From the IMG/VR virus record IMGVR_UViG_3300005613_000034: 18,769 bases of DNA; one strand, given 5' to 3'. This DNA comes from a virus. Lineage: Duplodnaviria; Heunggongvirae; Uroviricota; Caudoviricetes. Made by a program: the position numbers and the translations under genes. How positions within the stretch are numbered: the stretch's first letter is position 1; each line of letters starts with the position of its first letter. Of this stretch, positions 3,932-13,357 are shown one piece after another. Below the pieces are notes generated by a model, which saw nothing but the letters and a program-made list of their open reading frames with translations, searched no databases and had not been told where the DNA came from.

Positions 3932-3966
3932 AAAATATAGTAGAATAAGCTTATTTATAAACTTTT
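3928..3966 (-). promoter_or_regulatory. 39-bp promoter, copy 1 (identical to 6038..6076)
   Basis: AAAAG-TTTATAAA, palindrome AATAAGCTTATT (3944-3955), then ATG. Confidence 0.85.
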
Positions 3967-3969
3967 TGT

Positions 3970-4074
3970 TTATATTTCACCCGTAACAAGTTTAATATCC
4001 CCACATTCTTTACAAATCCACATTTTCATTCCAGAATTTTTATCTGTAAATAATTCATATTTATGTTCACACAT
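3970..4074 (-). CDS. 34-aa putative Zn-binding microprotein (not in ORF track)
   Basis: MCEHKYELFTDKNSGMKMWICKECGDIKLVTGEI; TAATG overlap with the upstream gene. Confidence 0.65.
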   Translation of the reverse strand: MCEHKYELFTDKNSGMKMWICKECGDIKLVTGEI

Positions 4075-6041: not shown

Positions 6042-6076
6042 AAAATATAGTAGAATAAGCTTATTTATAAACTTTT
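6038..6076 (-). promoter_or_regulatory. 39-bp promoter, copy 2 (identical to 3928..3966)
   Basis: Exact repeat CCATAAAATATAGTAGAATAAGCTTATTTATAAACTTTT (plus strand). Confidence 0.85.
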
Positions 6077-6083
6077 CTAAAAA

Positions 6084-6542: not shown

Positions 6543-7164
6543 CTATTTATAAGCTTTTTGTTTATTTAAATATTGATAGACCCCAGATTCATCTGCAAAT
6601 TCAGTAGAAAAAACGGAAACAATCTTTGTCTTATTTTCGGGCGAAAGTTGTTCAAAAATCGTGTTTTCATAGAATTTGTGAGTACCGAGGACTATTTTCG
6701 CATCCATATCAGTCAATATTTCGTTGAAATCTTTAAACCACGATTTAATTTGATTCTGCCGGATCCGTTCAAACCGTTGTGATGATTGACCGCCTTGCCG
6801 ATGGTTATTTATGATATATGAATCTTTTTTGAACAAAATATCGAAGCTACCATCATCAAATATGCGAGCATGTGTCATATGACTCAAATCTAATAAGAAA
6901 AGGTTAGTTAAAACCACTCTTTTTTCGATTTTTTTGAGCTGATTTCCACAAAAATATAAAAACCGACCTCCCGAATACGGTTCAGTTTTTAATTCACAAT
7001 CATCCCAAAAATAAGCGTAGCCTGGGCTAAAGACAATTAGAAATTTTATTCAATCCCTGAAGGACGGATGTCCTTGTTTGTTTTGATTTTATGTTGCGCG
7101 CTAACGCTATCTCTTTGTCAATATTGAACATTGACTTACTACTCGGAAAATATAGTGTAATCAT
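6543..7164 (-). CDS. prf1: Minimal aRF1/eRF1-family peptide chain release factor split by a +1 frameshift at CTT-TAG-C (ORF1 7164..7027; ORF2 7028..6543)
   Basis: GAGGTGA RBS plus ATG 7164. ORF1 has ITLYFP and E-x5-NIKS-K-x-TR. The +1 frame has EPY...LYFCGNQL (YxCxxxF-like) and HRQGGQSSQRFER. Confidence 0.88.
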
Positions 7165-7208
7165 TTTACATCACCTCACGTTTTTTGATTAAACTTTTCC
7201 AAAGTTTA

Positions 7209-7280
7209 TACGCCTGGAGAGAATCGAACTCCCAACCACCGGCATATAAGACCGGCACTCTACCATTGAGTTACAAGCGT
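7209..7280 (-). tRNA. trnI: tRNA-Ile(UAU)
   Basis: ACGCTTG/CAGGCGT acceptor; CCGGT-CTTATAT-GCCGG; TTCGATT T-loop. Confidence 0.9.
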
Positions 7281-7283
7281 CTA

Positions 7284-7354
7284 AAGAGGAACCGGGATTC
7301 GCACCCAGATTTAGTCCTTAGAAGGGACTTGTACTTCTATTATACTATTCCTCT
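7284..7354 (-). tRNA. trnR: tRNA-Arg(UCU)
   Basis: AGAGGAA/TTCCTCT; AGTCC-CTTCTAA-GGACT; variant T-loop TGCGAAT. Confidence 0.9.
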
Positions 7355-7370
7355 ATTTTTTAAAAGTTTA

Positions 7371-7441
7371 CGACTTGTGCGGGAATCGAACCCGCGGCTC
7401 CATCGTGACAGGATGGAATGTTACCACTACACCAACAAATC
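7371..7441 (-). tRNA. trnD: tRNA-Asp(GUC)
   Basis: GATTTGT/ACAAGTC; CCATC-CTGTCAC-GATGG; G73. Confidence 0.93.
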
Positions 7442-7443
7442 AG

Positions 7444-7516
7444 CTGCTAGAGCGGGACTTGAACCTGCAACCACTCCCTTAACAGGGGAGCGCTCTACCT
7501 ATTGAGCTATCTAGCA
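7444..7516 (-). tRNA. trnN: tRNA-Asn(GUU)
   Basis: TGCTAGA/TCTAGCA; CTCCC-CTGTTAA-GGGAG; G73. Confidence 0.93.
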
Positions 7517-7521
7517 TTTAA

Positions 7522-7595
7522 GTCAATCAAAAAATCTAGCCGAGACTGAATCTCAATAAAAAAATTGTATCAATACCGGCTAAAAAAAGATTGAC
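7522..7595 (-). ncRNA. Candidate structured RNA or terminator-like element inside the tRNA array
   Basis: Nested inverted repeats GTCAATC/GATTGAC (7522-28/7589-95) and TAGCCG/CGGCTA (7537-42/7577-82) with inner hairpins. Confidence 0.45.
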
Positions 7596-7691
7596 AGCCG
7601 ATACTAATAACTATCCAAATTCAGTATATTTATTCTTGAATTTAAATAGTTATATTTCATAATATAATATAGTAACAAAAAGTATATAAAC

Positions 7692-7748
7692 CTATTGTCC
7701 TTTATGCTTTTCAAAAGCAAATTCAATTACTTCATCTAATTTTGTTAT
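7692..7748 (-). pseudogene. Possible 5' remnant of an HD-domain (SpoT/Mesh1-like) gene
   Basis: AGGTGA RBS, then ATA-initiated ITKLDEVIEFAFEKHKGQ-stop, resembling the A-x-x-F-A-x-x-x-H-x-G-Q start of such hydrolases. Confidence 0.35.
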
Positions 7749-7761
7749 ATTATCACCTAAA

Positions 7762-7835
7762 TATCAAGGCGTGGATTTGAACCACGATCTGAGGCTTATG
7801 AGGCCCCTATCCTAACCAGATTAGAAGACCTTGAT
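7762..7835 (-). tRNA. trnM: tRNA-Met(CAU) (A1-U72; initiator/elongator/Ile2 status unresolved)
   Basis: ATCAAGG/CCTTGAT; GGGGC-CTCATAA-GCCTC; CGTGG-TTCAAAT-CCACG. Confidence 0.85.
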
Positions 7836-7869
7836 GTAATATTTATGATAGAAAAAGTATATAAATATA

Positions 7870-7942
7870 TGCGATATACCGGGCTCGAACCGATACTTTT
7901 TGGTTGGAAACCAAACGTGCTAACCATTAACACTAATATCGC
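7870..7942 (-). tRNA. trnG: tRNA-Gly(UCC)
   Basis: GCGATAT/ATATCGC; TTTGG-TTTCCAA-CCAAA. Confidence 0.93.
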
Positions 7943-7945
7943 ATA

Positions 7946-8019
7946 TGGAGCAGATCAGATTTGAACTGATGATCTTTCGGTCTTCAACCGAATGCTTTAG
8001 CCCGCTAAGCTACTACTCC
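7946..8019 (-). tRNA. trnF: tRNA-Phe(GAA)
   Basis: GGAGTAG/CTGCTCC; TTCGG-TTGAAGA-CCGAA. Confidence 0.93.
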
Positions 8020-8028
8020 TTAATTCAA

Positions 8029-8101
8029 TGAGCCCACGCGGATTCGAACCGCGGATCTTGGGGTTAAAAGCCCCCTATTCTACCAACTGAACTATGGGCC
8101 C
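8029..8101 (-). tRNA. trnK: tRNA-Lys(UUU)
   Basis: GGGCCCA/TGGGCTC; anticodon loop CTTTTAA. Confidence 0.93.
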
Positions 8102-8102
8102 A

Positions 8103-8174
8103 TGGGAAATACAAGAATCGAACTTGTGTCTGAGCGTTCCAAACGCCCGGTGATAACCACTACACCAATTTCCC
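8103..8174 (-). tRNA. trnP: tRNA-Pro(UGG)
   Basis: GGGAAAT/ATTTCCC; GGGCG-TTTGGAA-CGCTC. Confidence 0.93.
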
Positions 8175-8187
8175 ATAATTTTTGGTC

Positions 8188-8208
8188 AAGCTTTTTTGGA
8201 AAAAGCTT
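8188..8208. repeat. Perfect 9-bp inverted repeat between tRNA-Gln and tRNA-Pro
   Basis: AAGCTTTTT-TGG-AAAAAGCTT; function unknown (terminator or processing signal). Confidence 0.6.
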
Positions 8209-8210
8209 AA

Positions 8211-8284
8211 TTGCCCGTGTGAGATTCGAACTCACGATCTCTTGGTCCAAAGCCAAGTGTGTTTGACCCCTACACTAACGGGCT
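8211..8284 (-). tRNA. trnQ: tRNA-Gln(UUG)
   Basis: CTTGG-CTTTGGA-CCAAG; GTGAG-TTCGAAT-CTCAC; A1:A72 mismatch. Confidence 0.92.
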
Positions 8285-8286
8285 TA

Positions 8287-8359
8287 TGAGAATGCTGAGA
8301 ATTGAACTCAATCCTTTGGGATCACAACCCAACGTTCTAACCATTAAACTACACTCTCC
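8287..8359 (-). tRNA. trnH: tRNA-His(GUG), includes encoded G-1
   Basis: GAGAGTG/CATTCTC; TTGGG-TTGTGAT-CCCAA; A73. Confidence 0.92.
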
Positions 8360-8364
8360 ATCTA

Positions 8365-8436
8365 TGGAGCTGAAGGGAGTCGAACCCTTTCTTCATGCTT
8401 GCAAAGCATACGTGCAACCGTTTACACCTCAGCCCC
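8365..8436 (-). tRNA. trnA: tRNA-Ala(UGC)
   Basis: GGGGCTG/CAGCTCC with G3:U70; loop TTTGCAA. Confidence 0.94.
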
Positions 8437-8453
8437 AAATATATTTAGAAAAA

Positions 8454-8525
8454 AGCTGGTGCTCAGATTCGAACTGAGATAGAAAGTTTACAAAACTTTT
8501 ATGTTACCATTAACATCACACCAGC
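8454..8525 (-). tRNA. trnT: tRNA-Thr(UGU)
   Basis: GCTGGTG/CACCAGC; AAAGT-TTTGTAA-ACTTT. Confidence 0.93.
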
Positions 8526-8684
8526 CGTAAATTATTTACGTTGCTGATGCCCGGGCGCGGCCTTTTGAAAAAAAGCATTGAATATTTTGGTCGTACCCAT
8601 GTTAATCATATATAATATATGAACAAAAAAGTATTTAAATGTATCTATTTTTTTGTAAACACATCTAAATACTAAAAAACAAAG

Positions 8685-11168: not shown

Positions 11169-11597
11169 CTAAGGTAATTTAATATTTAAAGGAACATTCT
11201 CATCTGGTAATTCAATAGTTTGATCCCCGAATTCTTGTTTTGCTTTAATTGCTAAATATTCATTAATAGCATGAATTTCATCACTCATCACCTGGATCCG
11301 CTCATACATTTCTTTTTGTTGAGGTTGTTCCATAAAAAGACTACCCATTTCGGCTTTTTGTAATCCAAGTTTTAAAAATATAAAACCACTAACAAGAATT
11401 ATGGCAACCGCTGCAACACCAAATCCAATAGTTTCAGTCATGGTTGGCTCATAACCTTTTAATAATAAATAAGAAGACCCAATCAAAGCAAGATTGAGTA
11501 TTCCTTGGAATCTGCCGAGGACCATTCCGTACCCGGTTCCGTAGCATTTCATTATTCCGCCATACCATTGTCGTAATGATTTATCTTTAATTATCAT
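11169..11597 (-). CDS. Two-TM membrane protein with coiled C-terminus
   Basis: GAGGT RBS favours ATG 11597. Confidence 0.75.
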   Translation of the reverse strand: MIIKDKSLRQWYGGIMKCYGTGYGMVLGRFQGILNLALIGSSYLLLKGYEPTMTETIGFGVAAVAIILVSGFIFLKLGLQKAEMGSLFMEQPQQKEMYERIQVMSDEIHAINEYLAIKAKQEFGDQTIELPDENVPLNIKLP

Positions 11598-12510
11598 TTT
11601 CAATTACCTCTTTTAAAAATTTAACACAATTTTTAGTAATCAATGATTTAAAATTAGAAAAATCCAACCATTTATAAGATTCATATAAAGCCCCAGCTTC
11701 TTCTGATAAAATATCTTTCGCAACTAAATGTGGTAATTCTTGCATTAACCCCATTTCTAATTTTTTGTTTTCTTCATTTATAAGTTTATTTACTTGCTTT
11801 TTTATTCTTGCTTCAGTGCAAAATTGTTCAACAATTTTTTCAGTATCAGTATTCTTTTTACGAACACCACCAAAAATAGCTTTATTATTTTCTTTAAACT
11901 CATCTGCAACAACCTTAGCATATAATTGATGATTTCCCTGTCTTGATTTTCTACAATAATTTTTTAAAACAACACCTTCAGCTTTTCCATCATAATATTT
12001 TGATTGAGGAATCAATTTATCTATCTCCATTTTTTTCAAATCTCCTATTTTTCCTCTCCACACAAGAGGGATATTTTCTATTCCTAGATCATCAAATAAT
12101 TGGCATCTTAAATCTCTACCCAAAAACAACCCATAATCATCATTACTAATATTTCGTTTCAATCTAATATCTAAACCAATAACTTCTGGGGCATTATCAT
12201 ATTTAATGGTGTGTTGAGCCATCCATTCAAAATAATAAATATAATCTGGATTAAGTGTTTTCCCTTCCAAAATTTGTTTTAATTTAGCTCTTTGTTTAGC
12301 AAAAGTTTTTTCGTCACCTTCTTCTGTTAAATCTCTATTCCGTGAACCAACATGAATTGCACCATCTTCATCTACCCATGCAGATCCATTTCCTCCGTCA
12401 ACCTTCTCTTCAACCACAACAGTATCATCATTAAAATCAAAAAATTCAATCACTTCTTCAGACCCAAGTCTATAAATTTTAGGATATTTTTTAAATTGAC
12501 TCAATTTCAT
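11587..12510 (-). CDS. ATP-dependent RNA ligase, T4 Rnl2-like
   Basis: Motif I EEKVDG, III YFEW, IIIa GLDI, IV EGVVLK, V YAKVVADEFKE, plus helical C-terminal domain. Start could be 12519, 12510 or 12504. Confidence 0.85.
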   Translation of the reverse strand: MKLSQFKKYPKIYRLGSEEVIEFFDFNDDTVVVEEKVDGGNGSAWVDEDGAIHVGSRNRDLTEEGDEKTFAKQRAKLKQILEGKTLNPDYIYYFEWMAQHTIKYDNAPEVIGLDIRLKRNISNDDYGLFLGRDLRCQLFDDLGIENIPLVWRGKIGDLKKMEIDKLIPQSKYYDGKAEGVVLKNYCRKSRQGNHQLYAKVVADEFKENNKAIFGGVRKKNTDTEKIVEQFCTEARIKKQVNKLINEENKKLEMGLMQELPHLVAKDILSEEAGALYESYKWLDFSNFKSLITKNCVKFLKEVIENDN

Positions 12511-13357
12511 CACCCACATATTTAATTTCTTCTTCTATAAACGGTTTAATTTTTTGCCCCAGACCTTTACAAATTCTTATAGTATTATCAAAATCCCCTT
12601 CTTCTAAATACGCAGCTTCGATAGTTCTTTGTAATAAAGAAGCTACCAAAAGCATTTCTTCTGAATCAATTTCAAGTTTATATTTATTTAAATCTTTAAA
12701 CAACACAAAAACGGCATTAGCATTAGGAAATGGTTCACCATATTTACATTTCGCGGCTTTCGCAACAGAACATTGTTCCCAAGCATTCCCCCAATTACAT
12801 GTTCGTTTGAATGCAATAGTATTATAACCTTTAATACCTTTTACAACTTTTTTATCTAATTCAATATTAAATCCAGCAGGAATAGTAATATAAGCTTTTC
12901 CTTTTGGTTTTAACATAGTATGAATTTTTCGCAACGCTTTTAATGCTTTAGTTGGATCAGATTTTTCACCATAATCAAACCCAATATGTTCAAAAGTTGA
13001 AATTGAGAAAATATAATCATATTTTTTGGGGGTTTTATAATCTAAAAAATCAACATTCTTAATCCCCGAACCTTTTTCATATTTATCAATTACATCGTGT
13101 TTGAGTTTTGGTTCATAATTTTTTAAAACATTCCCAATTTCTAAAATATTTATTTCATCTTTATTAAATTTACTGATACCAAGAGACTCATATGCCTCTT
13201 GAATTATTGGAACTTCTATAGATCTTTCATTATCCCAACTATTATTATATCTACTATCATTTAAAATTAAAAATCCTCCTCGGAAATTAGTCATTCGTAT
13301 TTTAAATAATCTTGAATAAAAATATTTTAGAGGTTTAAGAAATTTCAGAAGTATCAC
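12491..13357 (-). CDS. SAM-dependent methyltransferase-like protein with C-terminal extension
   Basis: ILEIGN, YDYIFSISTFEHIG; start uncertain (13357 or ATG 13294). Confidence 0.7.
   Translation of the reverse strand: MILLKFLKPLKYFYSRLFKIRMTNFRGGFLILNDSRYNNSWDNERSIEVPIIQEAYESLGISKFNKDEINILEIGNVLKNYEPKLKHDVIDKYEKGSGIKNVDFLDYKTPKKYDYIFSISTFEHIGFDYGEKSDPTKALKALRKIHTMLKPKGKAYITIPAGFNIELDKKVVKGIKGYNTIAFKRTCNWGNAWEQCSVAKAAKCKYGEPFPNANAVFVLFKDLNKYKLEIDSEEMLLVASLLQRTIEAAYLEEGDFDNTIRICKGLGQKIKPFIEEEIKYVGDEIESI

Follow-up and report, generated by a model that had tools for sequence, protein, structure and literature searches.

A candidate termination-sensing +1 frameshift in the gene for a mini class-I release factor of a probably archaeal virus

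Organization of the split gene

The stretch of viral DNA analysed here (18,769 nucleotides; hereafter the window) is IMG/VR record IMGVR_UViG_3300005613_000034, assigned to the Caudoviricetes, and carries on its minus strand a gene for a mini class-I release factor of the eRF1/aRF1 type whose two parts lie in different reading frames. The gene begins with a Shine–Dalgarno (SD)-like sequence, GAGGTGA (7171–7177), read from the sequence 6 nt 5' of the start codon ATG (7164–7162); similar sites of the GGTGA type are also present 5' of other internal genes in the window. The first open reading frame (ORF1; 7030–7164) has 45 sense codons with no in-frame stop ahead of its TAG, contains the NIKS codons (residues 24–27; 7095–7084) and ends at the shift site CTT TAG C (7026–7032), in which CTT occupies 7032–7030, TAG 7029–7027 and C 7026. 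With CUU in the P site and UAG, followed by C, in the A site, skipping the T and reading AGC joins Leu-45 to Ser-46. ORF2 (6546–7028) opens at this AGC (7028–7026), has 161 codons in the +1 frame, gives Pfam matches to eRF1_2 and acVLRF1, encodes YFCGNQL (6956–6936) and GGQ (6794–6786), and ends at a terminal stop TAG (6543–6545) followed by A. The joined product has 206 amino acids (45 + 161).

A second zero-frame stop, TGA (7000–7002), lies 8 codons past the TAG, and therefore plain readthrough of the TAG cannot yield the protein. Ahead of the TAG, the +1 frame is open over just 20 nt, and this overlap contains no ATG, GTG or TTG. A preliminary description of this DNA, made from the sequence alone, had proposed a prfB-like +1 frameshift here, and the positions that it gave for the ribosome-binding site, the ATG, the 45-codon frame, the CTT TAG C and the +1 frame are exact. 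It had also stated that ORF2 has no start of its own near the junction and that the internal SD sequence of the prfB type is absent. Both statements are borne out: the first ATG, GTG or TTG of the +1 frame is found 38 codons past the junction, and the codons upstream of the shift codon, AAA ATT TCT AAT TGT, hold no SD-like run. The heptamer CTTTAGC occurs five times in the window, and only the copy at 7026–7032 is in frame at a gene end.

Domain architecture of the encoded protein

The two halves of the protein match residues 34–82 (ORF1) and 175–267 (ORF2) of aRF1 (PDB code: 4af1_A) in preserved order, and a profile built from 17 joined relatives aligns over its full length with residues 33–269 of eRF1. 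Of the eRF1 N domain, ORF1 supplies strand 1, a short helix, the NIKS loop and the long helix; its Met-1 aligns to eRF1 residue 33/34, just past the GTS loop. ORF2 encodes the β part of the N domain, which includes YFCGNQL, and the M domain, which includes GGQ. The Pfam domain eRF1_2 matches 17 of 17 family members. An AlphaFold model of ORF2 has a predicted local distance difference test (pLDDT) score of 83, and its top Foldseek matches are eRF1 and aRF1. The fold of the joined N and M domains was judged from an uninterrupted relative, P0012, the model of which has a pLDDT score of 93 and aligns to residues 33–278 of wheat eRF1 (Z score 14.4), to residues 34–278 of aRF1 (Z score 11.7) and to the isolated eRF1 N domain, residues 34–142 (Z score 10.3, root mean square deviation 2.2 Å). 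Mapped on the P0012 model, the shift site is in the loop that connects the long helix after NIKS to the strand that follows.

No match to eRF1_3 (the C domain) is seen, and the chain stops with the final M-domain helix, near eRF1 residue 270. The protein therefore consists of an eRF1/aRF1 N domain that lacks helix 1 and the GTS loop, and of an M domain; it has no C domain. The C domain of aRF1/eRF1 binds eRF3/aEF1-alpha and ABCE1, and therefore the usual contact with these partners is impossible for the mini factor. Glu-18, Asn-24, Ile-25, Lys-26, Tyr-70, Cys-72 and the GGQ motif are invariant in the 17 relatives. Glu-18 is the equivalent of Glu-55 of eRF1, Asn-24–Ile-25–Lys-26 of Asn-61–Ile–Lys-63, Tyr-70 of Tyr-125 and Cys-72 of Cys-127; in eRF1, these residues and GGQ serve stop-codon contact and release catalysis. 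The motif Y70-F-C72-G-N-Q-L76 has leucine in place of the phenylalanine of YxCxxxF, and the M-domain sequence HRQGGQSSQRFER is invariant across the family.

The cellular aRF1/eRF1 proteins (PDB codes: 4af1, 3agk and 1dt9; Pfam eRF1_1, eRF1_2 and eRF1_3) share with the mini factor colinear N and M domains, the NIKS motif, the Glu-55 equivalent, the YxC and GGQ motifs and the RF(E/A)R helix. They differ from it in length (about 410 amino acids, compared with 206), in having the first 33 or so residues and the C domain, in having YxCxxxF instead of YxCxxxL and, in the published cellular genes, in being encoded in a single frame. The assignment in the preliminary description to an archaeal-type release factor is right as to type, as both halves are colinear with aRF1, but the protein is not a whole aRF1, as about 33 N-terminal residues and the C domain are gone.

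Conservation of the frame change among relatives

Junctions were collected from fetched contigs and from a scan of JGI metagenomes with an ORF2 profile. About 20 distinct sequences from more than 15 assemblies have a readable junction, and a +1 shift at a stop codon is needed in all of them. In a search of 5.8 billion proteins, all matches were 113–164 amino acids long and limited to the ORF2 part, and therefore gene callers everywhere see the same split. No relatives were found by tblastn against 50,697 phage records, in scans of IMG/VR with the protein and with the profile, or in a scan of the GTDB species genomes.

Wherever ORF1 is complete it is exactly 45 codons long, apart from L094, in which it has 38. 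The clade that contains the window comprises eight distinct sequences with CTT TAG CCC, in which the preceding codon varies (TGT, TAT, TGC, TAC or TCT). The preliminary description had looked to homologues with a CTT-stop at the junction as a check on programmed frameshifting, and this retention of the heptamer amid changing flanking codons is in its favour. Sister clades have ATT TAG followed by C or T, GCC TAG T or GCC TAA T at the junction. Among more distant members, L095 has CTT TAA C at the same codon and L094 has CTT TAG C seven codons earlier, and therefore the same signal recurs. The P-site codon thus turns over among clades (CTT, ATT or GCC), and the A-site codon is always a stop, mostly TAG, with TAA in three lineages and TGA in none. 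The shift-site stop is in every case followed by C or T; a purine follows 9 of the 18 terminal stops of the same genes. A second zero-frame stop follows within 0–2 codons at 7 of 10 distinct junctions of the ATT and GCC clades and 12–14 codons on at the other three (L008/L032, L033 and L035). Terminal stops of the relatives are TAA, TAG or TGA, so that all three codons end genes in these elements and the genetic code is therefore standard.

Both frames are under strong purifying selection. The ratio of non-synonymous to synonymous substitution rates (dN/dS) is 0.04–0.25 for ORF1 in most pairs, with one pair at 0.42, and 0.05–0.13 for ORF2, with a synonymous divergence (dS) often above 1 in both. 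No ATG, GTG or TTG occurs for 11–108 codons past the shift, and for at least 27 codons in all but one sequence; dN/dS in the start-less stretch just past the shift is 0.04–0.15 in well-diverged pairs. The retention of a stop at the junction and the purifying selection in both frames support the proposal that the shift is programmed. A required and conserved +1 recoding event at the stop codon is very likely.

An assembly or sequencing error, or a decaying pseudogene, was considered as the source of the frame change. The T3 run at the junction and the restriction of the family to metagenomic assemblies would be in keeping with an error. However, the same frame change is found in more than 15 independent assemblies at 42–100% identity, junctions such as GCC TAG T hold no homopolymer, and contigs from three further studies span the junction of the window with no gap and no base difference at 7026–7033; moreover, dN/dS far below 1 in both frames argues against a pseudogene. 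This explanation was rejected on these grounds, and its probability is negligible.

Evolution of the mini family

An exhaustive HMMER search yielded 337 relatives. Some of them are uninterrupted, being proteins of N and M domains with 197–221 amino acids that start with MITL...NIK (for example, P0012, P0018 and P0029), and the existence of such deeper uninterrupted relatives indicates that the joined product is the real architecture. When full-length aRF1 is used to root the tree, the mini family forms a single clade apart from it (support 99), with in-frame basal lines. The shifted genes are a derived group that includes a clade of 16 rows, all shifted (support 97). This placement of in-frame basal members within a separate clade indicates that the shift arose within the mini family. 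P0012 and P0018 are in-frame neighbours, and at least three changes of state are needed on the tree.

Three further observations concern members of the family or their full-length relatives. A basal in-frame group (P0043, P0052, P0057, P0058, P0060, P0081, P0086 and P0087) ends at about 160 amino acids, after the long helix that follows GGQ; these may be even smaller factors, or recoding at an in-frame stop may hide the remainder. L003 holds two mini-aRF1 paralogues (L003:2715–3381 and L003:5114–5729) 1.7 kb apart, with starts 2.4 kb apart, which are about 63% identical and both have CTT TAG CCC. Their decoding motifs differ, being NIKD and YYCGKTL in one and NIKS and YFCGNQL in the other, and the stop codons may be divided between them as between RF1 and RF2. 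The metagenome contig AGBK01000065.1 (L051:1290–1360) encodes a full-length aRF1 with a zinc-ribbon insert and a +1 split at GCC CCC TGA A; a search of GTDB genomes gave no relatives of it. This single instance either is a sequencing error in the C5 homopolymer or marks a cellular aRF1 that shifts at CCC-UGA.

A model for termination-sensing frameshifting

By analogy with known release-factor genes, the best reading of the gene, with a probability of about 0.6, is a programmed, termination-sensing +1 frameshift in a mini class-I release factor gene. A ribosome starting at ATG 7164 would arrive after 45 codons with peptidyl-tRNA-Leu on CUU and UAG in the A site. Quick arrival of a release factor would let go a useless 45-residue peptide, whereas slow termination would allow a +1 move in which the tRNA re-pairs from CUU to UUU, AGC is read as serine and the 206-residue factor is completed. 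Output would therefore rise when the capacity for UAG termination is low and, if the product itself reads UAG, would fall as the product accumulates, giving a negative feedback of the type of prfB and Mimivirus R726. We infer that the shift is ribosomal and efficient enough and that the product terminates at UAG and UAA. What stays constant at the junction is a stop in the A site behind a P-site codon that ends in a pyrimidine. The P-site codon, the identity of the stop and its position all vary in the family, and therefore competition between termination and the +1 move appears to be the selected property; it is likely that this competition sets the level of shifting. Negative feedback is the simplest interpretation, given a product with all the hallmarks of a factor that reads stop codons. 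From anatomy and analogy, true self-regulation by the product stands at an even chance.

Several observations weigh against this model. RNAalifold on 16 junctions finds no pairs, and the window's own RNA fold gives no structure signal at the shift site (z = −0.6). An SD-like stimulator is absent from the window clade. In the ATT and GCC sister clades (L005, L009, L010, L014, L033 and L035), most members have AAGG 4–6 nt ahead of the P-site codon. It arises from AAG, the lysine codon four codons ahead of the stop, followed by G; the family uses AAA for lysine 300 times and AAG 78 times (21%). This AAGG may be a weak SD-like stimulator that is missing from the window clade, which is only a hint because the sequences are related. 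GCC-UAG-U re-pairs worse than CUU-UAG-C, and one slippage model may not fit all clades. The absence of TGA from the shift site, together with a +1 codon that is always serine or asparagine, could be explained by a constraint on the protein as well as by a constraint on the signal. With neither a GTS loop nor a C domain, the protein may not be a real terminator. Finally, host aRF1 reads the same stop of ORF1, and therefore the loop would sense total termination capacity and not the viral factor alone, and would keep that total capacity constant.

The last two points also bear on an explanation in which the frameshift is real and required and feedback is not involved, the shift being either a fixed-ratio attenuator that keeps a potentially toxic factor scarce or a one-way sensor of host termination that responds to depletion or inactivation of aRF1 or aEF1-alpha in infection or defence; both forms are unlikely. 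Host aRF1 must compete at the same UAG, and a product without the C domain and GTS loop may have another codon range or job. The differing P-site codons suggest that weak holding of the P-site tRNA, whichever it is, is enough at a stop in a poor context, and the back-up zero-frame stops suit a simple leak design. However, the device recurs at two positions in a release-factor family, which is hard to explain unless the activity of the product matters. To our knowledge, the only genes with such a +1 shift at a stop codon, prfB and R726, encode release factors.

It is distinctly unlikely that the product is instead a stop-independent or specialised peptidyl-tRNA hydrolase or rescue factor (like Vms1/VLRF1, Pelota or PrfH) or an A-site decoy that works with the viral tRNA and RNA-repair genes, the frameshift still coupling its synthesis to pausing at stops. 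The best single Pfam match of the protein is acVLRF1 (1.2e-6), but this match spans only residues 112–150, that is, 39 residues around GGQ, and the P0012 model reaches a Z score of 6.9 against Vms1, compared with 14.4 against eRF1. The structural matches include Balon, an aeRF1-like hibernation factor of bacteria, and the C domain is absent; yet the N domain fits that of eRF1 with the deviation given above, the equivalents of Glu-55, NIK and YxC are invariant, and Pelota, Vms1 and Balon lack these decoding motifs. The neighbouring genes would suit a rescue role: RtcB (L001:1–1108) lies less than 2 kb from the factor gene in L001, and an Rnl2-type RNA ligase (11587–12519) lies 4.4 kb from it in the window; in bacteria the PrfH–RtcB pairing serves ribosome and RNA repair (PMC6514570). 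It is very unlikely that ORF1 and ORF2 are translated separately, by termination–reinitiation or from a non-canonical start, into two polypeptides that assemble into a split factor. In L008/L032 an ATG used by gene callers does lie 5 nt ahead of the ORF1 stop. The other lineages, however, have no ATG, GTG or TTG in the overlap of 11–20 nt, purifying selection acts on the start-less codons that follow the overlap (27–108, with one exception), in-frame relatives make one chain, and the break falls in a helix–strand loop of one compact domain.

Comparison with known systems

The closest counterpart of the termination-sensing frameshift proposed here is the Mimivirus gene R726, in which readthrough of a UGA is needed before a +1 shift at CUU UAG C (Jeudy et al. 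2012, PMC3521657). The related gene mg280 of Megavirus has CUU UAA C; mass spectrometry of products expressed in E. coli demonstrated both (PMC3521657). R726 and the gene in the window share a virus-encoded factor of the eRF1/aRF1 type, the identical heptamer and the lack of an internal SD sequence, and the heptamer of mg280 is the same as that of L095. In both systems the device is kept between diverged relatives, and in R726/mg280 as in the mini family it is read as prfB-like autoregulation. R726 differs in encoding a full-length protein with a C domain, in belonging to an amoebal giant virus that uses 80S ribosomes, and in its extra UGA readthrough; the gene in the window is half the size and has no such readthrough, its setting is prokaryotic in style (SD sites and a tRNA array), and the P-site codon varies among clades. 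The shift in R726 probably lies further into the protein than here, as judged from the reported product sizes. The preliminary description had cited interrupted eRF1 genes in the Mimiviridae; this is correct but understates the precedent, since R726 shows +1 shifting at the identical heptamer (PMC3521657).

Bacterial prfB, encoding RF2, has CUU UGA C and resembles the mini gene in its short ORF1, its P-site CUU, the C after the stop and the +1 position of the main frame. Its product is also a class-I release factor, and the device is found in many members and absent from others, as in the mini family. The stop of prfB is UGA, read only by RF2, whereas here it is UAG or UAA and never UGA. Furthermore, prfB has an internal SD sequence 3 nt upstream, whereas the window has none; its ORF1 has about 25 codons compared with 45 here, and the fold of RF2 is unrelated to the eRF1 N domain. 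Antizyme (UCC UGA U) and Euplotes genes also shift +1 at a stop after a pyrimidine-ending P-site codon, and the GCC UAG U of a sister clade resembles the antizyme site. These systems differ in being eukaryotic and in serving as a polyamine sensor or in genome-wide shifting, and no downstream pseudoknot was found here.

A 2021 review of archaeal recoding lists no release-factor case (PMC8211752), and neither viral eRF1 nor frameshifts come up in a review on how release factors evolved (PMC6514570). The preliminary description knew of no archaeal or archaeal-virus case, and a literature search likewise found no paper on aRF1/eRF1 frameshifting in archaea, archaeal viruses or phages. So far, an arrangement of a release-factor gene around a +1 shift at a stop codon has been published only for bacterial RF2 and for giant viruses of the Mimivirus type.

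Genomic context and host

An array of 13 tRNA genes (7209–8526, minus strand; ARAGORN and Rfam) lies directly 5' of the factor gene, and the end of its tRNA-Ile(UAU) gene is 44 nt from the ATG. The relatives in L003 (second copy), L010, L094 and L095 also stand directly behind a tRNA gene. A search of this window gave no tRNA with an intron or with an odd anticodon loop able to read four bases. The window has 31% G+C, and its other products include glycosyl- and methyltransferases, the RNA ligase mentioned above and a DUF5679 zinc ribbon. Among the nearest Atlas clusters, viral labels (Uroviricota) predominate. No RNA data set is listed among the sequencing runs that contain the sequence, and DNA runs contain only small shares of it, which bears on expression in neither direction. 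The element is a large virus of low G+C content, with the factor gene in its tRNA block.

The host of the virus is probably archaeal, because TATA-like boxes are enriched and the decoding domain is of the aRF1 type. The motif TTTAWAAATA was found 7 times in the window (2.5 expected) and TTTAWAWAC 15 times (4.8 expected), and none of 200 shuffles reached either number; the looser motif AAAAGTTTA, with one mismatch allowed, is not enriched in the window (40 found, 33 expected). TATA-like boxes lie 20–22 nt 5' of start codons without an SD sequence and of the tRNA-Met gene, and this spacing fits archaeal TATA promoters with leaderless mRNAs. An identical upstream region of about 40 nt occurs at two genes on the minus strand (3932–3971 and 6042–6081); it consists of the TATA-like TTTATAAATA, 20 nt and ATG, with no SD sequence. 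Similar boxes are found 5' of 9869, 13357 and 17948 and of the tRNA-Met gene at 7835. This tRNA-Met(CAU) (7762–7835, minus strand) has A1:U72 as its first pair, which marks archaeal and eukaryotic initiator tRNAs; its anticodon stem has only two of the three G:C pairs of the initiator type, and its identity as an initiator is ambiguous.

Implications

A +1 frameshift at a stop codon inside a release-factor gene is the textbook case of a gene that senses the activity of its own product. A third, phylogenetically separate occurrence would make this solution strongly convergent. The natural variants of the mini family, with CUU, AUU or GCC in the P site, UAG or UAA in the A site, C or U after it and two positions in the gene, are a ready mutational series for shifting at a stop on archaeal-type ribosomes. 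Gene callers label such genes as fragments of 110–170 amino acids named 'eRF1 domain 2', so that databases conceal both the family and its architecture. A release factor with only N and M domains bears on the dependence of eRF1-type termination on its GTPase partner, and it may be asked why viruses that have large sets of tRNAs carry a terminator of their own. More tentatively than self-regulation itself, it can be proposed that archaeal viruses invented a feedback switch of the prfB/Mimivirus type independently, at least twice in one family, on a GTPase-independent, stand-alone aRF1 that lacks the C domain. If so, this would be the first autoregulatory +1 frameshift in archaeal translation and the first virus-encoded termination factor for prokaryotic hosts.
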